From positions 1 through 60,292 of IMG/VR virus record IMGVR_UViG_3300010158_000004: a DNA stretch of 60,292 nt; one strand, 5' to 3'. The translations under genes were made by a program, and so were the position numbers. The notes under the pieces were generated by a model, which was not told the DNA's origin, did not search any database, and was given only the letters and a program-made list of their open reading frames with translations. Below are positions 124 through 11,804 of this stretch, in pieces (position 1 is the first letter of the stretch; every line of letters starts with the position of its first letter). Source of the DNA: a virus. Its lineage: Duplodnaviria; Caudoviricetes.

Positions 124-295
124 GGCAGGCACCGGAGCGGGTAAGCGGGCAAGCCACTACGAGGTCATACCCTTATGCCCAGCCCACCATCGTGGCAATA
201 TGGGCTTACACGGTTTGGGCTCCAAGGGCTTTGTGAAGCACTACGGATACGATGAAGATGACCTCCTTGCGGAGGTCGCCCTGCTTATTCAGTAA
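14..295 (+). CDS. Ref-like (recombination enhancement) HNH/Zn nuclease
   Basis: LGCLVC...AELHH.R.G.G.G.RAS...IPLCP.HHR motif pattern. Confidence 0.7.
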   Translation: MTTLAEKKHMSKVADLGCLVCRRMGHYGTPAELHHKRAGTGAGKRASHYEVIPLCPAHHRGNMGLHGLGSKGFVKHYGYDEDDLLAEVALLIQ

Positions 296-3200
296 ACATC
301 TTCTTGGCCTGATACACATTGCGCAGAAGCTGATTTTGCGCCTTGGTTATCTCAGCCAGCTTGTCCCGCTTCTCATCTGCGGTCATTTCCTTTGAGCGGC
401 GGATTGCATTCGCCGCATCGGTAAACTCCTTCAGAGTAGAGTTAACGCCCTGCACGTATTCTTTTCCGGAAAGTTCCTTTTGGTGCTTCTGAATAAACTC
501 CGCGTACTCAGGGCTACCTTGCTTCTCCAACAAGCCTGCCGTGGCTACAGCCTTGTCTACCTCGTCCTTTAGTTCATAGAAGGCCGTTGTAGTTCCCTTG
601 GCGTTTGGATCAACCAAGAACCGTTTGATGACGGGCATCTGCTCCAATGGTAGGGATGGCTTCTTTACATCGCTGTATTGGTTAAATACCGCATCAGCCA
701 CATCCGCAAAGTACATACCCATTGTTCCGGTGTAACCCTGCAAAAGGTGGTCAATCAGCATCGGAGAAGTTCCCGAAAGCTTTCCTAGTTGCTCTGCAAC
801 CTTAGAGGTTCCCGCGTTCATCTGGTACTCAGGCTCCAATCTTTCCATGCCCGGCCCAACAATAGGACGCTGTGTAAACAGCGAATAGTTTGACTTGGCT
901 TCAAGCGCTGGCATGATTGCCTGCGGGATTGGGTTAAAGGACAAGGTATCCAATAGCGCCCGCTGGGATACGCGCTGCAGATCCTTGGCTGTATCGGTGC
1001 CGTAGTAGTAACGGTAGATGTGCTCAGGGATGGTCTTAAACAGGACACCCAACTCGAACGGGATCGGAAACTTTCCAACGCCCGGAATGATCCAGTTTAA
1101 ATCACGCACTTCTTCGTTTTGATTTTCGTACTCAGGGTTGCCCATGACCGCAGCAGCGTACATGCTGCTCAAACCTAGCAACATACCCATGCGTATTAGA
1201 GATGTCTTCTGCTGAAGCTTCTCTGCGTTGGTAGACATAGGATCCAGTGATGGACGAATGCCCGAACGGTACATGATATCCAAGCCCTGCAGCTTGGCGT
1301 TCAAGAATGGAACGGTCGCGGTGATAATCCGAACCAATGGGTTGTTACCCTTGCGGTTGAAGTTCAACACCTCCAAGGCTTGGTGCAATGCCTCAGCCTC
1401 GTTGCCGGTCTTCTTCATTACATCCTCGTACACAGAGATACGAACGGCGGCATCATGTGCCTCGCTGGCTTTCTCCAAGTAATGCCAAATTCCCGTAAAT
1501 GGGCTTGCAGCCATCTCCATCGCTGTCTTTGGTGCTCCACCCTTCTCCCCAATAGATTTCTCCAAGGCCTTACCGCTTGCCTCAATGCCGCGACCAAATT
1601 CGCCGGTGCTTAGTACACCTGCGTTTAAAAGCTTCTTGTAGGTTTCGGACTTATCGCCCATGACCGCAGCAAAGTTTTTAATGGTTCCGGTGATCGGTTT
1701 GATATCGCTACCGCTCAACATGTAGGAATACATCGAGTGCTTCATCATGTTGGCAATAATGAACGCAGGATCCTTGGTCACCATTGAGCGCAGGAAGTTT
1801 GCTGGCTTCGACAAGAAGCTCAACAGAGGCATCTCCGGAGTACTCAAGGAACGCATGGCATCCACCAGCAGTGGGTCTGCAACACGGTAGGAAACAGGTT
1901 GACCCTTCTCCAATATGGTCACAACATCCGGGCCGGAAGATACTGCATTTAAACGCTCCGCTTCACCCAAATCCATTACATCTCGAATAGCCCGTCGCCC
2001 TGCTTCGTTCTTCAATCCACCAGCAATTGCCGCCTGTGTGTTGCGGACAATGTTTTCCATGAAGTCGCCAAGAGGTGCTTCTCCACCCTTTAGGGTCTTG
2101 GGTGTTTTCACTCCGGCAATGTTTTGGAAGATCTTTGGCCCAACGGTGTTTTCACCGTCCATCTGACGGTAGAAGGGAAGGTAGTCCGAATGCTCTGTGA
2201 AGCGCTTTCCTTGTTCCTCGGAGATCTGGCCCGTATCCACCATGTACTTGACCAAGCCATCGCTGTACTTGATCCATTCCTTTTGAATGTCGTTGAACTC
2301 GGGGTACATCTTTTCCAAGGCCTTGCCATTGGCAATGTCTTGTGCACTGAAAAGCTTCTCGCGGTCTTCTTTGGAAAGACGCTCTGCGCGTTTAGCGCCC
2401 GCCCACAGTTGGTAAGCCTGATAGATCTTTGAATCACCGTACTTAGCCAAAGGAGCAAAGATAGCTACAGCGCCTTTAATCGTTCCGCCCTCATCGCTCA
2501 CGGTGGTAAATCCATTGCGGAAAACTGGGATGCCGCCCATGCGATTACCCACACCCAGTGCTGCTGCGGCGATGCCGGAAGCCTTATCGGATTCCAACGC
2601 AGCCGCTTCTGCGGACTGATCTGCCAAACGGTCAATACCACCCATCCGCTCTGCAATGCGGCGATCATTGACGCTCATCTGGTTGTACTTGTGTACAAAG
2701 GCCTGACGCAGCTTGGAGAAGGTGTCTGGTGCGATTGCGCTGGTAATGCGCTGCGCGTAGGTTTTCTCATCCCGCGCCGTAGATACTTTGTTTAAACTAT
2801 CAAGGATAGATTGCCCGTTGGGCATAGCTTGAATAGCGTCTGTAACTACCGTGCGCTTGCTTGCGCGGACATCAGGATTGAACCTGTCATAGGTACCAAT
2901 GTTGCCTGTGGCAGACTTCACCTGCGTGGGATCAAACACTGCAAGGTTTTTAACTCCGTGTTCTTTCACATAGAAGCTATCAAAGCCCGCAAACTTGATT
3001 GCATCCTGTACGGCCTCAGACTCAATGGTCTCCCAGCTTCCGCGCTGCAAATCTTTGCGCAGGTCTTCTCCATCGGTTAACTCAGCCAAAACGCGCTTAA
3101 TGTGCGCTGGGTTGGAGTAATCAAAGGGTCGTTCTGCGCGGACATACAGAGGCATGATATGCGGCCCAGTAGGCAGCATGTCTTTAAACTCAGAACGCAG

Positions 3201-6200
3201 GTACTCTTTGGCATCCGGCGTAGCGCTTTTGAGATCACCAGCCGAAATGCTTTTGATCATTTCTTGAGCATCTGCGCTGTTGCCGTAATCCTTCTTGATG
3301 GCTTTGATTGCCCGCTTGATGCCATCGTTCAGTTGCTCTTTGGTGAGGTACTTGGATGGGTCTCGCGCAACGTAATCAAAGCTGTCTTTGGCAAAACGAC
3401 CAGCAAAGTCTGCATCGTCCGTCAGGAAGATAGGAGCACCACGTTCGGTCTTGCGTGTGAAGTCCGTGGTGTCTTTAGCCAAGCCGTGGTACATGACCTT
3501 TGGCTGACCGCGCTCATCAACTATCGTGCTCTTGCCAAAGAACTGTTTAAACTCAGGTGTATCTGGAGCTGTACGCAAGCTCTTGCGAACATCTGGCGCA
3601 ATATTTGTGTTGGTTGCCCACTCAGGCATTAAACCAATCTTTTGATCTGCAAACTTAGTTTCCTCGCCGGAAGCCTTTCTGTTTGCCTCGGCATATGGGC
3701 CAAAGTTAACAACGGAGTTTTGGCCGCGCGTTCCAGCGGTCATTGCCCTTGCAGCTTCCGGAGAATACATGCGTACATGGGATTGGAATGCGTTTTCCTC
3801 TCCCTCTGCGCGGAATCCAAAGCCTTCCTTGATATGCCCAAAGAAATCATGCGTTGCGCGGAACACCTCCACTAGCCGTGCTGGGCGTCCGGAAATCATA
3901 ATGTCCGTTAAGGCCAGCGCAGGGTTGTGCTTGATTTGTTCCTCAGTAATGGCCTTGGAACCAAAGCCACCGTCTGCAGGGAAAACATACAGGTGGTTGT
4001 TGTTCAACACATCCAATATGGCGTTGCGTGGATTCCCGTAGGGATCCTTGTTGTTGGGCATAAACTCAATCTTGATGCCCGTCTTCATCATGGCCTTGTA
4101 CTGTGCAATGGTCTCATCGCCCCAAGCCTTGTAAGCCCTTGCCACCTCTGGGTTCAGAGGATCATCCGCCATTTGCAGATATGTGGCTGCAAGCTTTTTG
4201 GAAAAGTCAGGGTCTAGCTTGTGATAGCTTTCCTGCTGACGATAGGGTATACCGGACTCTTGGCCGTAAAAAATTGCAGCTTCCCGTGCGGGCGTGTAAG
4301 GGCCAAAGGTAACGTCTTTGCCGTCAACCTTTACCGTGGCTGGGAGCCCTTCAACCGGTTTCTCAAGATCTGGATACTTTGCCCTTGTCTCGTCATCCAG
4401 TAGCCGTATGCTTCTTCGTACTCCTCCCTGCTGTGGAAGTTGCCCTGCTTGGGTTTGGAGTTTTCCAGTTCCTTGAGCTTGGCTCTTAGTTCCATACCCT
4501 GTTCCTTCGTTAACATATTTTGTGACAGCATCATCTTGCGCCTTCGCTAAAGCATCGGGGTCATCGTAGTATTGATCGGGTGATATGACATCTGGAGTAC
4601 GAGACTCTTCGGGGTCATAGGCCATGTAAACAACATCGGGCTCACCCTTGTTGAACTCTTTAAACGTTTGCTTGTTCCATCCATCCGGGATGTAGTCCTC
4701 ATTCCACTTCATCCGTCCCACTACTTTAAATCCATTTTGGTAGTAGATATTTGGCAGCACCGTATCAAAAGCGTCCAGCTTGCGGCCACCTTCTTGCACT
4801 GCAAGTTGAAGCATGGATGAGGCAGCACCCTTGTGCTCCGGTGAAGAGAACACAGAAACAATGTCATTGCCTTTTAATGCAAAACCCGCCTTACCGTCCT
4901 GAGTCATAAACTTACGCATGTCTGCGTATGCTTCTTCAGGGTACACGTATACGGCAGCGCCGTATGGGCTATCTTCTTTTGATTTGGCTATGGCAGCTTG
5001 GAATACGTCCGCATCCTGTGGCTGCATTTCATAAAACGTTGGGGATCGGTGGCCAAATTCCCCAACCGTATTTTTGAAATCTTCTGTTGGCTTGTATGCC
5101 GCAACGGTCTCTCGACCTAGAACCCGAACGCCTGCGCCATCTCCAAAGCCTTCTCTCGTGTGAGAGTCGGGTGCTGCTTCATTGCGCTCTCGATAGGATC
5201 GTATGGCTGTTCTGAGGCTTGCTCTTGCCCCTTGGTCAGGTGCTTGACCATTTTGCTCAGTTCGTTGTACCTCTCCTGTGGGTTCATTCCCACGGTCAGG
5301 TTGTCTATTGAAGACCACAGAGGGTCTCGCTCGTCCATTACCATCCTTTGATTGAGCAATGATTGCTTCTTCGTATCCAATGTCATCGGCTTCTCTCCCA
5401 GTAAGTTTTGCATAGAGACGTTTTTCATAGTACCAAAGCGCGGCCTGAATATCTGCAAGACTTAAATTAACCCCTTTGTCAGAAAGGATATTCTGCGCTT
5501 TCCGCGCTGCCTCGTACATAAATTTGCGATCACCGGCACCAAATGGTGCCTCTTGCAACATTTCGTATTCATTCTTGTAGATGGTGTTTGCCATCTTCTC
5601 CATCTGGTGTTCGTACTCCAACTGAGGGTAAGCATCCCCAGCGGCGGCTTTGGCTTTTTTGAACCAAGCATCTTTACCTGCTTTGGTGTTTGGCTCTTTG
5701 GATTTTGCAAGATGCTCCAACTCGGTTTTGTAGCCGTATTCCTTGTACTTGTCGCGGAAAGGAATGGTTGCGGCAACAACTTCATCTCTTGAGGCGTCCG
5801 GTTTATCCATCATCTCGCGGAATCTGGAGATAGAAGATTCTGTTGCGTTGGTCATTAGTTGACCACGCATCCGGTTGATGGTACGTGACCACCACAAGTC
5901 CATCGTCAAGTATCCCTCTGAACCAGAAAGGTTGGAAAAGAATGCGCCAAGTTTTGGCCCAAAATAAATTGCCGCTGCCGGAATTTTTGTGTCCGCTGTA
6001 TAGCTGTTATCTGGCTTCTCACCCTTGCTGCGCAGATATGCATTTAAATCACGTACTGTGATCTCTCGCGTCATTTCTTTTTGGAAATTCTCTTTGTGAA
6101 CTGCGAGTAGGTTTTGCAACGCAAACAAATTATTGTGAAGAGCGGTAGCCCTGCGTACACCCATTGCCACCAATGGCTTCCCATCACGCAACTTGGCATA

Positions 6201-8972
6201 CAACTCAATTGCGTTTTTGATGTTCTTGTCTACGCGCTCACCGTTGGAGGTAATGGCAACCAACGCAGAAAACACTGAGCGGGCATGTTTGTTTTCCATG
6301 AGCTCAGGGAATCTATTTGCAAGACGTTGCAAAGCTTTGGGGTAGTTGCTGGAATACCAACCAGTGCCCGTGCCTGTAGCGCTGGTAGTGCCAAGCTGGT
6401 AAGCAACCTCATCAGCCATCGCATTAGCCAATTTGTCAGAGGCCTCTTGGCTCCTATCTTTAGGATCAATAGCCTCAAACTCACGCAGCGTTTTGTCGTT
6501 TAAAGCCTTGGCAACTTCGCGTACAGTGTTTTCGCCTGCTGCACCTTTTTTCTTTTTAATATTAAGACCAAGGTCATTTTGTGCAAATGTTTTATTGGAC
6601 TCCATGATCCTGCGGGTTGACAGAGGAACCTCATCGGTTAAAGTGCGCATGCTCTTGCGCATTTGCCCGGCGGCTTCTTGTCCTTCAGGAACCAACTTGC
6701 CAGCCTCAATCTTCCGGAATAAATCCTCTGAGGTTTGGAACCCTGCACCGTTGAATGCATTTTTGATGCGGGCAAAGAAGTTGCGCATGCCATTGAGCAT
6801 GGCACCAAAGACCCCGCTAGGTGCACCGTTTACATCAAAGTGGCGGAATGCATCAGCGATAGCCTCTTCACGCACCTTAGCCATATCGCCTTTGTAATCT
6901 TCGACGTAGGCGTCATAGCGCGATTGCTCACCGTCTTTGAGAGGCAATCCATCCACGTTGCGCTGTTTCAGGAACTGATCAATCCACTTAGTCTCCGCTT
7001 GGTGTTCCAAAAGCTTCCACTGCTGATCCGTGAAGAAGCCCAAAGCCTTCAGGCCGTGGATAACTTCATGGCGCAGAACACCAATAGGTTTGTTGGCATC
7101 GAGCGCAATCTGGATAACCTTGGAGCCATAGTTGCCCTCTTCCTGCAGACCTTTCACAATCTGCAAGTCAATATCACCCAGACCAAACTTCTTCAGGAAC
7201 GGAGCAAGCTTTGCATGAAGCTCTTCTGGAGTGATGCCTTGCTTTTCGACAACAGGAGTGACGGGCTTTACGGCATCTGGCAGTTCTGACAATGCCTTAA
7301 ACGCAGCATGAAGCTGCGGCTGAGACATGTTGTTTAAATCATTAGTACCCGTTGTTTTTGCTAGGAAATCTTTAAAGGCTTCGCTGCTGGGGTCAATCTT
7401 TTTATCATGCGCTGATGCCAGTAGGTCTGCAGCCTCAATGGGCTGACCATCAAAGCCCGTGCGTTCTGCAATGATGTCATGCAGTCCCGCATGAGACTCG
7501 GGCTTCTCCGCAAGCTCGTGGATGTCCTGCAAAGTGTAGGAGTTGGTCGGGTCACGATCCAAGTCTGCGGTCTTTTGCTCAAGCTCCTCCAAAAGGTCTG
7601 GAGCCTTGGTCTGCAGTTCATCTCGGGTGATCGGGCCGACTTGGTCGCTTACGGTGCCAAGCTTCTTTTCGGCTTCTTCACGCAAACCCTTGAGGCGGGT
7701 GTACTCAGTCGCAGCCTCATTGATCTGTGGCTTGAGTGCATCAATTTGCTTTTGAATAGCGCTGTTCGCCAAGTTGTCAGCCGCAGGGGTCTCTGCGCTA
7801 ACGGGGATCTTCTGAGCCTCTAGCTCCTTGCGCTGGCGCTCAAGTCCCAGATATTTATCAATAACTTGCTGTTCGTATTCCGGGCTTTGTTTAAATGCCT
7901 CAAGTTTCTCGGCTTCATGCGCTTCTGCTTCGCGCTGCAGCTTTGCAGCGGCTTGTTGTGCTTCACGCTTACGTCCTTCGACAGCGGCCACAGCCTCGGC
8001 TTGCTCGCCACGAGCACCCAAGATACCAAGAGGAGCACCAAGGAAGCCGCTTGTAGCCGCGCTTCCATATTGAGCCATTGCCTCATCACTCAGGAGATCT
8101 TGGCCCGCCTGAGCGCGGCTTAGAGCAGTTTGTGCAACCATCAAGGGCACACCAACTTTTGCACCCTCAACGGTTCCTTTGCCAATGGTTGCCCAAAATC
8201 CTTGTTGATCAAGTTTTTCTTGAGCGAGTTGTTGCACCTTGGATGCGGCCAATTTTTCTGCTGCGGACTTCTCGCCCTGACCCAGCAAAGCGGCAACCTC
8301 TGGGCCAAAGACCGTGGTCATAGCCTTAGCGCCCGTGGGAATCAGGTGTGCCACATCCAATGCGGTCTCGGGAACGGCAAAAGCCGCTGCCCGCGCTGTG
8401 CTGACATCGACTGGCTTGCCTTGTTTCTTCTGCTCTGCTGCTTGCTCTTCTACGTTAGAGCCAATATGAGAAAGATAACCCAATCCCAGACCCAATCCAC
8501 CGCCGATTTGTTGACCAATGGCGGCACCAGCGGGGCCAGCCAAGGCAGCGCCAGCAATACCGCCAGCAATGCGCGGTAAGCCGTATTCAGCCATGATAGG
8601 AACCGCACCAGCCAATGCCGTGGGAATCTCTCCAACAGCGGTTTTAGCGGCAGACAGCAACCCTCCGCCGGGTGCGTTGTAGGCGGCTTTGATCTTCTCT
8701 AAGCTGTCTTCAGTAGTGAACTGCTTGGCAATCTCTTGGCGGCGTTCTTCGCCCGCTTTTGCTGCCTCATTGGCATTGCCAAAAATAGCACCAAGACCGG
8801 TACGCATACCGGACAAAGCACCAAGGGTGCTGGCTCCCAACTCACCTATTACACCGCCCGTTGGGGCGGGAGCATTCATTTGCTGTATTTTTGCTTTGGC
8901 CTGCTCGGGAGTAACTTCGTCGGGAATGTTGGCAACCACAGTGCCATCAGGCATTCTTATTGAATACGCCAT
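285..8972 (-). CDS. Large polyvalent internal virion (ejection) protein: zincin peptidase, GWY/DLW domain, GNAT-like, HDFFGH domain, ADP-ribosyltransferase-like, LPD38-like C-terminus
   Basis: 2895 aa at the end of the podovirus late operon; LRHEVIH..EEAIADAF; LDAFDTVLP..Y...GF; MYHG...PFDY...GFDS...VFDPTQVKSATGNIGTYD; IPFELG...NPIPQ...NYSLF..RPIV. Confidence 0.85.
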   Translation of the reverse strand: MAYSIRMPDGTVVANIPDEVTPEQAKAKIQQMNAPAPTGGVIGELGASTLGALSGMRTGLGAIFGNANEAAKAGEERRQEIAKQFTTEDSLEKIKAAYNAPGGGLLSAAKTAVGEIPTALAGAVPIMAEYGLPRIAGGIAGAALAGPAGAAIGQQIGGGLGLGLGYLSHIGSNVEEQAAEQKKQGKPVDVSTARAAAFAVPETALDVAHLIPTGAKAMTTVFGPEVAALLGQGEKSAAEKLAASKVQQLAQEKLDQQGFWATIGKGTVEGAKVGVPLMVAQTALSRAQAGQDLLSDEAMAQYGSAATSGFLGAPLGILGARGEQAEAVAAVEGRKREAQQAAAKLQREAEAHEAEKLEAFKQSPEYEQQVIDKYLGLERQRKELEAQKIPVSAETPAADNLANSAIQKQIDALKPQINEAATEYTRLKGLREEAEKKLGTVSDQVGPITRDELQTKAPDLLEELEQKTADLDRDPTNSYTLQDIHELAEKPESHAGLHDIIAERTGFDGQPIEAADLLASAHDKKIDPSSEAFKDFLAKTTGTNDLNNMSQPQLHAAFKALSELPDAVKPVTPVVEKQGITPEELHAKLAPFLKKFGLGDIDLQIVKGLQEEGNYGSKVIQIALDANKPIGVLRHEVIHGLKALGFFTDQQWKLLEHQAETKWIDQFLKQRNVDGLPLKDGEQSRYDAYVEDYKGDMAKVREEAIADAFRHFDVNGAPSGVFGAMLNGMRNFFARIKNAFNGAGFQTSEDLFRKIEAGKLVPEGQEAAGQMRKSMRTLTDEVPLSTRRIMESNKTFAQNDLGLNIKKKKGAAGENTVREVAKALNDKTLREFEAIDPKDRSQEASDKLANAMADEVAYQLGTTSATGTGTGWYSSNYPKALQRLANRFPELMENKHARSVFSALVAITSNGERVDKNIKNAIELYAKLRDGKPLVAMGVRRATALHNNLFALQNLLAVHKENFQKEMTREITVRDLNAYLRSKGEKPDNSYTADTKIPAAAIYFGPKLGAFFSNLSGSEGYLTMDLWWSRTINRMRGQLMTNATESSISRFREMMDKPDASRDEVVAATIPFRDKYKEYGYKTELEHLAKSKEPNTKAGKDAWFKKAKAAAGDAYPQLEYEHQMEKMANTIYKNEYEMLQEAPFGAGDRKFMYEAARKAQNILSDKGVNLSLADIQAALWYYEKRLYAKLTGREADDIGYEEAIIAQSKDGNGRARPSVVFNRQPDRGNEPTGEVQRTEQNGQAPDQGARASLRTAIRSYRERNEAAPDSHTREGFGDGAGVRVLGRETVAAYKPTEDFKNTVGEFGHRSPTFYEMQPQDADVFQAAIAKSKEDSPYGAAVYVYPEEAYADMRKFMTQDGKAGFALKGNDIVSVFSSPEHKGAASSMLQLAVQEGGRKLDAFDTVLPNIYYQNGFKVVGRMKWNEDYIPDGWNKQTFKEFNKGEPDVVYMAYDPEESRTPDVISPDQYYDDPDALAKAQDDAVTKYVNEGTGYGTKSQAQGTGKLQTQAGQLPQQGGVRRSIRLLDDETRAKYPDLEKPVEGLPATVKVDGKDVTFGPYTPAREAAIFYGQESGIPYRQQESYHKLDPDFSKKLAATYLQMADDPLNPEVARAYKAWGDETIAQYKAMMKTGIKIEFMPNNKDPYGNPRNAILDVLNNNHLYVFPADGGFGSKAITEEQIKHNPALALTDIMISGRPARLVEVFRATHDFFGHIKEGFGFRAEGEENAFQSHVRMYSPEAARAMTAGTRGQNSVVNFGPYAEANRKASGEETKFADQKIGLMPEWATNTNIAPDVRKSLRTAPDTPEFKQFFGKSTIVDERGQPKVMYHGLAKDTTDFTRKTERGAPIFLTDDADFAGRFAKDSFDYVARDPSKYLTKEQLNDGIKRAIKAIKKDYGNSADAQEMIKSISAGDLKSATPDAKEYLRSEFKDMLPTGPHIMPLYVRAERPFDYSNPAHIKRVLAELTDGEDLRKDLQRGSWETIESEAVQDAIKFAGFDSFYVKEHGVKNLAVFDPTQVKSATGNIGTYDRFNPDVRASKRTVVTDAIQAMPNGQSILDSLNKVSTARDEKTYAQRITSAIAPDTFSKLRQAFVHKYNQMSVNDRRIAERMGGIDRLADQSAEAAALESDKASGIAAAALGVGNRMGGIPVFRNGFTTVSDEGGTIKGAVAIFAPLAKYGDSKIYQAYQLWAGAKRAERLSKEDREKLFSAQDIANGKALEKMYPEFNDIQKEWIKYSDGLVKYMVDTGQISEEQGKRFTEHSDYLPFYRQMDGENTVGPKIFQNIAGVKTPKTLKGGEAPLGDFMENIVRNTQAAIAGGLKNEAGRRAIRDVMDLGEAERLNAVSSGPDVVTILEKGQPVSYRVADPLLVDAMRSLSTPEMPLLSFLSKPANFLRSMVTKDPAFIIANMMKHSMYSYMLSGSDIKPITGTIKNFAAVMGDKSETYKKLLNAGVLSTGEFGRGIEASGKALEKSIGEKGGAPKTAMEMAASPFTGIWHYLEKASEAHDAAVRISVYEDVMKKTGNEAEALHQALEVLNFNRKGNNPLVRIITATVPFLNAKLQGLDIMYRSGIRPSLDPMSTNAEKLQQKTSLIRMGMLLGLSSMYAAAVMGNPEYENQNEEVRDLNWIIPGVGKFPIPFELGVLFKTIPEHIYRYYYGTDTAKDLQRVSQRALLDTLSFNPIPQAIMPALEAKSNYSLFTQRPIVGPGMERLEPEYQMNAGTSKVAEQLGKLSGTSPMLIDHLLQGYTGTMGMYFADVADAVFNQYSDVKKPSLPLEQMPVIKRFLVDPNAKGTTTAFYELKDEVDKAVATAGLLEKQGSPEYAEFIQKHQKELSGKEYVQGVNSTLKEFTDAANAIRRSKEMTADEKRDKLAEITKAQNQLLRNVYQAKKMFTE
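4331..4495 (-). CDS. Putative nested gene (54 aa, MELRAKLKEL...REEYEEAYGYW...) in the +1 frame of the polyvalent gene
   Basis: AAGGA 7 nt upstream of ATG; helical protein-like sequence; lies in a low-complexity linker of the host ORF. Confidence 0.55.
   Translation of the reverse strand: MELRAKLKELENSKPKQGNFHSREEYEEAYGYWMTRQGQSIQILRNRLKGSQPR
5117..5338 (-). CDS. Putative nested gene (73 aa, MDERDPLW...HPTLTREKALEMAQAFGF) in the +1 frame of the polyvalent gene
   Basis: AAAGGA 5 nt upstream of ATG; amphipathic helical C-terminus; lies in an R/G/Q-rich linker of the host ORF. Confidence 0.6.
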   Translation of the reverse strand: MDERDPLWSSIDNLTVGMNPQERYNELSKMVKHLTKGQEQASEQPYDPIESAMKQHPTLTREKALEMAQAFGF

Positions 8973-10790: not shown

Positions 10791-11804
10791 TTAAGCACCC
10801 ATTTTGTGAATAGACAGAGCTACCAGTCCGCCCTTGGCGTACTTGATTTCACCGCCCTTAGCCTTTAAAGCACCTGCACCAACAGCAGCGGTACCCAGAC
10901 CTGCCGCAATAGAAACCGGGCTAGGTGTGGAGTAAACGCTCTGCTGACTTCCGCTGATTGGCAGACCCTGCAAGATGTTGGACATGAAGCCAAGCTGCTG
11001 GTATGGGTACTGCTTCTGGTTCTGGAAGTTTTGATACGCAGCCGTATCCAGATTCTGCTGGTACTGCTGTTGTTGAGCGCCCAACTGATTCTGTTGGTTG
11101 ATGATGCCCATCTGCTGGCCATACTGCGTTTGCCCAATGTTTGCCAAGTTTGATGCCGCGCTATTTGCTGCGTTTACACCAGCAAGACCAACATTTGCTC
11201 CCTGCATACCCAAGGCCGCTGCTTGCTGCATGTTCTGATTAGCAGTGTTGAAGGCTTGGTTGTATCCCTGACCAACCAAGTTGCTCATTGCCAATTGGTT
11301 GGCTTGGTTCTGCTGTGCGTTTTGAACGCCCATTCGGGAACCGCCAAAGGCACCGGCTTGTACGGCTTGGCCTTGATTTGCCTGCTGCTGCATGCCTTGC
11401 TGCTCGTTAAGCATTTGCATCTGCGGAGCCAAAGAGGCTTGCAAATATGGGTTCATGTACGACTGAACCGCGCTTGGATTGGTTGCATTCATGCCGTAAC
11501 TCATGCCAGCCTGAGCGCCCATACCTCCAAATCCAAGAGCACCTTGTCCTGCGTTTTGAGCCATGTTACTAGCTGCACCCAATTGAGGTGCTGTGCTCAT
11601 GTTTCTGGATGCGTTAAAGGATTGGTTCTGTAGATCGGAGAACCCAGCAACTTGCTCACCACCAAAAGGCTGGTACGGATTTTTGTTAATGTCGGTCAAC
11701 GCACCAACTTGCCCCAAAAGATTCTGCGCGTAAGGCGCAGCATAAGGCGCAAGAATGCTAGTTGTTTGTGTTTGTGATGTAGGGTTAGATCCGCCGCCGC
11801 TCAT
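10791..11804 (-). CDS. DNA transfer / pilot-like internal virion protein
   Basis: N-terminal MSGGGS..TQT, Q/A/G-rich, AGAFGGSR, C-terminal hydrophobic Gly/Ala helix. Confidence 0.65.
   Translation of the reverse strand: MSGGGSNPTSQTQTTSILAPYAAPYAQNLLGQVGALTDINKNPYQPFGGEQVAGFSDLQNQSFNASRNMSTAPQLGAASNMAQNAGQGALGFGGMGAQAGMSYGMNATNPSAVQSYMNPYLQASLAPQMQMLNEQQGMQQQANQGQAVQAGAFGGSRMGVQNAQQNQANQLAMSNLVGQGYNQAFNTANQNMQQAAALGMQGANVGLAGVNAANSAASNLANIGQTQYGQQMGIINQQNQLGAQQQQYQQNLDTAAYQNFQNQKQYPYQQLGFMSNILQGLPISGSQQSVYSTPSPVSIAAGLGTAAVGAGALKAKGGEIKYAKGGLVALSIHKMGA

Follow-up and report, generated by a model that had tools for sequence, protein, structure and literature searches.

The window analysed here, i.e. 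the whole 60,292-base stretch of the IMG/VR virus record IMGVR_UViG_3300010158_000004, is a complete viral contig with direct terminal repeats. Its largest gene encodes, in frame 0, a protein of 2895 amino acids, and two small open reading frames (ORFs), here referred to as ORF1 and ORF2, are located within this host gene on the same strand and in its +1 frame. Both had been read from the letters of the window in an original prediction, which took their products for possible inhibitors or chaperones of the adjacent protein domain; they are indeed present, and in relatives they are conserved and under selection. Based on the comparative analysis described below, ORF1 and ORF2 are very probably real coding genes.

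In common with the polyvalent proteins described in the main text of Iyer et al. 2017 (PMC5512222), the host gene product possesses many effector-like domains, among them LPD38 (residues 2613-2782; E 1.2e-35 in a Pfam scan) and ART-PolyVal (E 1.9e-16), as well as a zincin-type HEVIH motif near residue 640, which was read from the translation. The upstream neighbour gene (10791..11804) matches phrog_4287, annotated as 'DNA ejection protein'. As judged from the LPD38 and ART-PolyVal domains and the adjacent ejection-protein gene, the product belongs to the phage polyvalent proteins as defined in that study. Three domains flank the nested genes (Table 1). Domain X is conserved in homologues, although a Pfam search gave no family for it, and the start of ORF1 shares its DNA with the last helix of this domain. 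It is followed by a GNAT-like domain and by domain Y, for which tblastn matches were obtained in 28 loci while the PHROGs matched were all of unknown function. A blastn search of the region against GenBank phages gave no match.

Table 1. Positions of the host gene, its domains and the nested genes in the window
Feature	Position	Strand	Remarks
Host gene	285..8972	minus	largest gene of the window; 2895-amino acid polyvalent protein, frame 0
Domain X	5343..6485	minus	about residues 830-1210; boundaries approximate; no assigned family
Shine-Dalgarno-like GGGAGAG	5393..5399	minus	6 nucleotides upstream of ATG 5386
Nested gene 1 (ORF1)	5386..5117	minus	+1 frame; 89 amino acids plus stop
ORF1 N-module	5222..5386	minus	about 55 amino acids; overlaps C-terminal end of domain X and linker
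ORF1 C-module	5120..5203	minus	residues 62-89; ends FGF; stop at first codon of GNAT-like domain
GNAT-like domain	4503..5117	minus	host residues 1286-1490; predicted partner of ORF1 C-module
Shine-Dalgarno AAGGA	4503..4507	minus	7 nucleotides upstream of ATG 4495
Nested gene 2 (ORF2)	4495..4331	minus	+1 frame; 54 amino acids plus stop (4333-4331)
Domain Y	3603..4367	minus	about residues 1536-1790; boundaries approximate; preceded by ORF2-like peptides

Start signals and limits of the nested genes

According to the original prediction, each of the two ORFs starts with an ATG that is preceded, at a distance of 5-7 nucleotides, by AAGGA. Both arrangements can be read in the sequence, that of ORF1 with a spacer of 5 nucleotides before an ATG at position 5338. 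However, this start of ORF1 proved to be wrong. The codon at 5338 reads CTG (Leu) in eight of ten close homologues, the constraint on synonymous sites of the host frame sets in about 16 codons upstream of it, and the conserved start is an ATG at 5386-5384 which resides within the invariant host codons GAT GAC and is preceded by GGGAGAG. Thus, ORF1 extends from 5386 to its stop at 5119-5117. Among 55 distinct homologues, 51 have retained the ATG, with a purine-rich Shine-Dalgarno sequence 6-8 nucleotides upstream; most relatives have GGAAGGA at this position, and GGGAGA, which is likewise purine-rich, also occurs. The host Asp codon from which the ATG is formed is GAT and not GAC in all 11 sequences, so that this synonymous site is fixed, and the stop occurs at the same codon in the close homologues (ten compared). 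Similarly, the ATG of ORF2 is formed within host TAT GGA and occurs in the window as well as in all six homologues of full coverage (five distinct ORF2 peptides), the host codon being TAT and not TAC in 7/7 sequences. It is preceded by GAAGGA in six of the seven aligned sequences and by GAGGG in the seventh, and the position of the stop is conserved to within a few codons. In the +1 frame, a stop is located five codons before the ORF1 ATG in most homologues and a few codons ahead of that of ORF2. These alignments make it quite probable that the nested genes initiate independently of the host frame. Shine-Dalgarno motifs as stand-alone evidence were rejected, since eight of the 105 ATGs in the +1 frame of the host gene have a Shine-Dalgarno-like pentamer upstream.

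Programmed ribosomal frameshifting into the +1 frame would offer another explanation, by which truncated isoforms of the polyvalent protein with alternative tails would be formed. Each +1 ORF ends at a domain boundary, which agrees with this idea, and a purine-rich Shine-Dalgarno-like element could stimulate a +1 shift, as in prfB. However, the +1 stops, located 5-9 codons before the ATGs in most homologues, leave only about 15-27 nucleotides for a shift site, and no conserved slippery sequence is present between stop and ATG, where the bases vary among homologues. The retention of the ATG and the fact that database relatives begin at the same Met also speak against a shift, as do split variants of ORF1. 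In five loci (L005, L009, L084, L093 and L095) an insertion brings +1 stops into ORF1, and in 5/5 distinct cases a second cistron restarts with its own AGGA or AAGG and an ATG 0-4 codons past the stop. We thus regard frameshifting as improbable, and initiation at the nested start codons as the better account.

Selection in the two reading frames

Taken by itself, the window contains no more such ORFs than expected by chance: the host gene has 22 same-strand alternative-frame ORFs of at least 40 amino acids. All but one of these (21/22) sit in the +1 frame, and only 2 ATGs occur in the +2 frame vs 105 in the +1 frame, an asymmetry that is probably due to codon usage. In homologues, the alternative-frame ORFs of the host gene other than ORF1 and ORF2 are mostly interrupted by stops.

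The comparison was based on a homologue search with residues 1150-1600 of the host protein, which yielded 672 homologues at E <= 1e-3, and on two collection scans, from which 155 loci were obtained. In ten close homologues the +1 frame is open over both ORFs and encodes a conserved peptide in which replacements are conservative. Five complete homologous genes were added to that of the window, and a codon alignment of the six full genes (4122 columns) was used to determine the variability of each codon position. The first positions of the host codons are the wobble positions of the +1 frame. In the three domains X, GNAT-like and Y, the host frame displays a third-position variability of about 0.5 and a first-position variability of 0.1-0.3. 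Across both ORFs, the third positions drop to about 0.1-0.2 and the first positions become the most variable at 0.3-0.5. Scanning all 4122 columns, we observed a clear and sustained inversion only at residues ~1184-1290 and ~1486-1545, i.e. at ORF1 and ORF2, and near-equal values of first and third positions in a few other segments.

Frame-specific selection had been named as a check in the original prediction, and here its outcome is in favour of the small genes. The ratio of nonsynonymous to synonymous differences per site (pN/pS) was determined by the Nei-Gojobori method in both frames. Within the nested genes, pN/pS of the +1 frame amounts to 0.37-0.59 vs 1.0-1.5 in the host frame, while control stretches show the reverse (host 0.16-0.27, +1 1.12-1.76). 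The values are 0.40 (+1) and 1.48 (host) for the N-terminal part of ORF1, 0.42 and 1.03 for its C-module, and 0.38 and 1.07 for the first half of ORF2. In a set of 46 distinct sequences, codons 17-50 of ORF1 gave 0.59 (+1) and 1.54 (host), and the stretch upstream of ORF1 gave 1.12 and 0.21, respectively. The second half of ORF2, where both frames have a pN/pS of about 0.36, indicates a true dual constraint. Differences of short contigs of relatives (four metagenome DNA runs) inside ORF1 fell on +1 codon positions 1, 2 and 3 in 6, 9 and 9 cases, respectively, and were uninformative.

It might be argued that no second protein is made at all, and that chance open frames are kept by a constraint at the nucleotide level such as a recombination cassette or an RNA structure. 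The window alone, with its 22 alternative-frame ORFs and eight sites with Shine-Dalgarno motif plus ATG in the +1 frame, would be unremarkable in this respect. In addition, other freshwater metagenome runs gave short contigs whose matches are confined to positions 4339-4440, 5110-5171 and 5284-5387, i.e. just dual-coded stretches, while their flanks are unlike; the same contigs fit linker cassettes common to mosaic relatives. However, the constraint shows a periodicity that matches the phase of the +1 frame (variability of 0.3-0.5 at first and ~0.1 at third positions of the host codons), and therefore plain nucleotide-level constraint is ruled out as its source. The low pN/pS of the +1 frame, the conservative replacements and the conserved start and stop also argue for a protein, an Rfam search gave no match at E <= 1, and a free-standing protein homologue exists (see below). 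The absence of a second protein is hence disfavoured by the sequence comparison and appears very improbable to us.

Small cistrons in larger genes are represented by Rz1, which resides inside Rz in the +1 frame, and by the overlapping genes of phiX174, and in these systems both products are used. Like these, ORF1 and ORF2 are complete same-strand cistrons in another frame with their own start signals. Unlike Rz1, neither ORF1 nor ORF2 contains a cysteine, so that their products cannot be lipoproteins; and, unlike in both systems, the host gene is a multidomain effector gene with the nests located in its linkers and shuffling with its domains. Compared to the architecture described in PMC5512222, the difference is that the linkers are dual-coding here; in the main text of that paper, the words 'overlap' and 'frameshift' do not occur. 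A full-text literature search, together with the main text of that paper, revealed no report of nested genes in polyvalent proteins. Same-strand nested genes are invisible to gene callers, and a small-protein family is thus missing from annotation. Should the coding claim alone hold, few comparative cases of dual coding in tailed phages would be as clear as this locus.

Modules and relatives of the nested proteins

Structural modeling of ORF1 by AlphaFold2 (AF2) predicted four helices behind a disordered basic N-terminus (predicted local distance difference test score, pLDDT, of 77 and predicted template modeling score, pTM, of 0.37), which agrees with the helical peptide originally expected from the letters. 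In the N-module, the helices span residues 22-31 and 36-55 (block pLDDT 82-90). As read from the homologous loci, ORF1 is a fusion of two modules, of which the N-module goes with domain X and not with the GNAT-like domain. For this part of ORF1, a partnership with the GNAT-like domain is not supported.

Using a hidden Markov model (HMM) of ORF1, +1-frame matches to its first ~55 residues were obtained at 78 of 156 loci. They correspond to 55 distinct peptides, and for all 55 the surrounding host frame is free of stops over the entire locus. Many of the loci missed by the HMM possess diverged versions starting with MKKQ within host Tyr-Glu-Glu. We rely in addition on a count in which no HMM is used. 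The domain X anchor YYEKRLY...YEEA is found in 96 distinct loci, and a +1 ORF starting with ATG extends beyond the anchor in 93 of these, with at least 40 codons in 90 cases and a median of 65; three loci have no such ORF. Among control +1 ORFs of the same loci (n=1112), 24.5% reach 40 codons and the median is 19 (Mann-Whitney p = 4e-39, which is inexact as the sequences are related). The N-module was always found at the end of domain X, a placement that is partly forced, since the loci were identified through domain X. Two to three nests occur per host gene.

The C-module follows the GNAT-like domain. It is present in the +1 frame and ends at the first codon of that domain in 12 of 15 distinct loci which have the domain, among them L091 despite a different upstream domain and the cultured Limnohabitans phage DC33, where the 3125-amino acid gene is annotated as one hypothetical protein. 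A strict regular expression for the host-frame shadow of the C-module matched 27 of 119 homologues, and distant ones show a looser version. Such co-occurrence across loci bears out the expectation that the nested peptides move with particular domains. The record of phage DC33 (PQ492659.1, 39 kb; L177) has a taxonomy line naming Inoviridae, which looks like a mis-assignment.

In one locus (L044:1565-3163), the host frame stops at 1674, four codons past the domain X anchor, while a +1 ORF which begins with an N-module-like peptide runs for at least 533 amino acids. This might reflect an assembly frameshift or, alternatively, a polyvalent gene that has been split naturally, with the nested start site put to new use.

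Relatives of the nested proteins also occur outside polyvalent genes. With a profile built from 36 nested peptides, 1.84 billion representatives were searched. This gave 58 proteins at E <= 1e-3, of which 23 reached E <= 1e-10; most are 44-170 amino acids in length, and many align from the first Met. Three long repeat proteins among these matches (P0169, P0180 and P0181) were judged spurious by eye. In viral contigs, P0124, P0126 and P0138 gave nested relatives only or nothing (the cluster of P0124 comprises 21 members on contigs of at most 15.6 kb); a search with A2 in genome contigs and a tblastn search of P0126 against phages gave no match. WP_290357426.1 of Roseateles violae is encoded by a free-standing gene of 89 amino acids with AAGGA 6 nucleotides before the ATG, which resides in an island (L176:9668-10270). 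The gene lies there between an integrase and a type I restriction-modification operon that includes a DUF3293 gene. A short ORF just upstream holds a motif that also forms the N-terminal extension of the database protein P0131, and a 491-amino acid gene without a family lies opposite. In a protein of a Rhodoferax metagenome-assembled genome, the N-module is fused to an unrelated beta-rich domain.

The existence of a free-standing relative and the low complexity of the host linker, which is without purifying selection of its own (pN/pS 1.0-1.5), suggest that the overlap is no older than the small-protein frame and that the linker represents the overprinted frame. Overprinting thus probably ran in the reverse direction to that originally proposed, in which the small genes had arisen in the linkers. 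This also suggests that the 'disordered linkers' of giant proteins may be the shadow of another gene.

The same observations are in line with a different view of the nested genes, namely that they are real but represent older small proteins of phages or mobile elements with roles in assembly, packaging or regulation, which are unrelated to the flanking domains and were swallowed as effector genes became fused by read-through in another frame. The Roseateles homologue with its island, the Rhodoferax fusion and the varying combinations in which the modules occur would all be compatible with such an origin; a host linker pN/pS of 1.0-1.5 is expected of a young overprinted frame, and in L044 the +1 ORF continues where the host frame stops. 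However, the position of the C-module end directly before the GNAT-like domain is fixed in 12/15 loci, also in a different upstream context, which rather argues for a functional relation of C-module and domain.

For ORF2, the neighbouring GNAT-like domain is probably not the partner. In the close group (five distinct peptides besides that of the window) and, as a weak signal, in four distant loci, ORF2-like peptides are located ahead of domain Y, and this is so even where no GNAT-like domain is nearby. Thus, the partner of ORF2 is probably the following domain Y. Twelve other domain Y loci gave no match to the ORF2 HMM, and several of these possess a different recurrent +1 peptide. This second peptide ('EALRR'), in which an acidic run is followed by a basic helix, was observed upstream of a domain Y subtype in L102, L092, L081, L077, L061 and L018; it is located within the 70 nucleotides before domain Y, and the host frame is Gly/Arg-rich there.

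Predicted partner and possible role

By sequence and structure comparison, the domain at host residues 1286-1490 is likely a GNAT domain. Using tblastn, it was found to match Streptomyces phage genes annotated as 'acetyltransferase' with 28-32% identity (E 1e-6 to 8e-8). A Foldseek search with its AF2 model, which is poor (pLDDT 48, ten sequences), gave weak matches, mostly to GNAT enzymes (best E 0.085).

Complex prediction, which had been suggested as a check, was carried out for ORF1 and this domain and predicts a contact. An interaction score (ipSAE) of 0.82 was obtained in 3/3 runs vs 0.01 for the best of three controls; the partner had a pLDDT of 56-58, and the runs share at least 70% of contacts. 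Of 80 solved complexes, 58 attain the mark applied for this score, as do 2 of 110 mismatched pairs; this calibration is only rough here, given the custom alignments used. The predicted interface is formed only by the 28 C-terminal residues of ORF1 (62-89) together with domain residues 89-100, 118-127, 153-156 and 174-178. In a GNAT fold, these segments of the domain would correspond to the beta4-alpha3 and beta5-alpha4 elements around the acetyl-CoA site. A search of PDB sequences with ORF1 and the GNAT-like domain revealed no relative at E <= 0.3 except spurious designed barrels, and recall of a similar known complex by the model is therefore unlikely. The proposal that a nested peptide partners the adjacent domain is thereby supported, as a predicted complex, for the C-terminal part of ORF1. 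Based on these models, we lean slightly towards the view that the C-module binds the GNAT-like domain. Such a strong and specific predicted interface (0.82 vs 0.01) would not be expected of proteins unrelated to the flanking domains; together with the fixed position of the C-module, it renders that alternative doubtful, although we consider it a serious contender.

GNAT-type toxins with small antitoxins provide a possible model for the role of such a complex. In PMC7758455 (section 5), AtaR is described to neutralise the GNAT toxin AtaT via its C-terminal region by blocking substrate binding and misaligning acetyl-CoA (see also PMC7470980 and PMC7595197). As in AtaR-AtaT and KacA-KacT, ORF1 is a small protein encoded directly upstream of a GNAT-type domain, and, as in AtaR, it is the C-terminal region (62-89) for which a contact is predicted, over domain residues 89-100 and 118-127. 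Unlike the AtaR family, ORF1 is without sequence similarity to any PDB chain. As the 113-amino acid frame containing ORF1 matches no Pfam family at E <= 0.01, ORF1 is, by Pfam, not a member of the ribbon-helix-helix (DUF1778-type) family, and the AF2 model shows no strand. The ORF1 gene also differs from that of AtaR in being nested out of frame in a polyprotein gene instead of forming a separate cistron, and the candidate 'toxin' is one domain of a virion protein with putative GNAT identity and toxicity. By analogy, the C-module may act as a neutraliser of the GNAT-like domain, which we propose tentatively.

The mechanism that might be envisaged is as follows. Translation of the nested genes would start at their own Shine-Dalgarno sequences and ATGs and proceed in the +1 frame, within the linkers of the gene for a virion-delivered polyvalent protein. 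In the nested stretches, purifying selection acts on the small-protein frame, while the host frame mostly needs no more than to stay open as a flexible R/G/Q-rich linker. The C-terminal helical hairpin of ORF1 would bind the cofactor and substrate face of the GNAT-like domain and, in an AtaR-type fashion, hold it inactive in the producing cell, or else help it to fold, and ORF2 would play an equivalent role for domain Y. As such a guardian and its domain share one piece of DNA, they would be shuffled together. From the above we infer inhibition, its timing, the exclusion of the small proteins from the capsid and the role of ORF2. As an overall explanation, two nested genes with the ORF1 hairpin guarding the GNAT-like domain and ORF2 likewise guarding domain Y currently account best for the data, and we consider the chances of this reading to be about even.

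A number of observations weigh against it. The complex score is a measure of model confidence, and 7 of 44 blindly picked neighbours also passed the mark. The small ORFs are without a match in Pfam, PHROGs and PDB folds, the best Foldseek match of the ORF1 model against the PDB having an E of only 3.4, and a search of the ESM Atlas returned only unnamed clusters (top score 0.88). Similarly, the GNAT-like domain matches no Pfam acetyltransferase family even at E <= 10 and no PDB sequence. A +1 ORF was found at the ORF1 site in 93/96 loci and the C-module in 12/15, and thus not always next to the same domain; the remaining 3/15, which have the most distant GNAT-like domains (33-41% identity), lack the C-module. 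For the distant +1 peptide variant before domain Y, the selection signal is weak, with pN/pS of 0.83 (+1) and 1.05 (host) over 23 codons in six sequences. No relative of a polyvalent protein was found within 10 kb on each side of the Roseateles homologue (tblastn, E <= 1), and hence the N-module does not need domain X in cis. Finally, the ART domain, which is the most obviously toxic one, has no nested ORF in the 4122-column scan, so that a rule by which every toxic domain has a guardian fails. Of all these observations, the ART domain and the Roseateles homologue weigh most.

It might further be speculated that the linkers of such polyvalent proteins are systematically dual-coding, each with a cognate guardian of the adjacent effector domain, be it a neutraliser or a chaperone for folding or packaging, and that effector and guardian form an indivisible cassette that shuffles between phages. 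Internal starts might then let a single insertion or deletion split the polyvalent gene, as L044 may show. We put forward this wider reading as a possibility that is open to considerable doubt. It resembles an arrangement known from polymorphic toxins such as CdiA-CdiI, where the immunity gene follows the toxin gene as a separate gene and protects kin cells. As in such cassettes, a variable toxic module would stand next to a cognate small protective protein and recombine with it as a unit. Unlike CdiI, the candidate guardian is encoded ahead of its domain, in the same DNA as the linker, and its protection would be confined to the producing cell. A cassette analogy with polymorphic toxins is mentioned in the main text of PMC5512222.

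The family spans about a hundred freshwater phage contigs and a cultured Limnohabitans phage, and the DC33 record lists only the giant gene at this place. If the guardian reading is true, the phage would be able to make toxic enzymes for packaging without poisoning its own late translation, nests would point to the dangerous domains in polyvalent proteins, and toxin and antidote would be present in a compact architecture with absolute linkage. If dual coding proves to be systematic, toxin-antidote pairs would be organised here in a new way, and giant phage proteins could be interpreted by a general rule.

A GNAT-like domain with 42-49% identity to that of the window was also observed at the end of the MuF-type proteins of the Microbacterium phages Caron, UtzChips and Barnstormer (gene 4, 'minor capsid protein'; L178:1436-3013, L180 and L181). 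There, the domain core is preceded, at a distance of about 30 codons, by the stop of a +1 ORF of about 47 amino acids with an ending that resembles that of the C-module; with an HMM E of about 2, and as the trio are 93-98% identical to one another, we regard this as a lead only.

In the host protein, a motif consisting of a basic residue, any residue, Ser, Leu/Met/Ile/Lys and Arg is found at five domain boundaries (residues ~795, 1251, 1517, 1788 and 2090), which corresponds to roughly 6590, 5220, 4420, 3610 and 2700 of the window; two of the five lie inside the nested genes. Processing of polyvalent proteins by a metallopeptidase domain is proposed in the main text of PMC5512222, and, given the zincin motif in the same protein, these boundary motifs are candidate autoprocessing sites.

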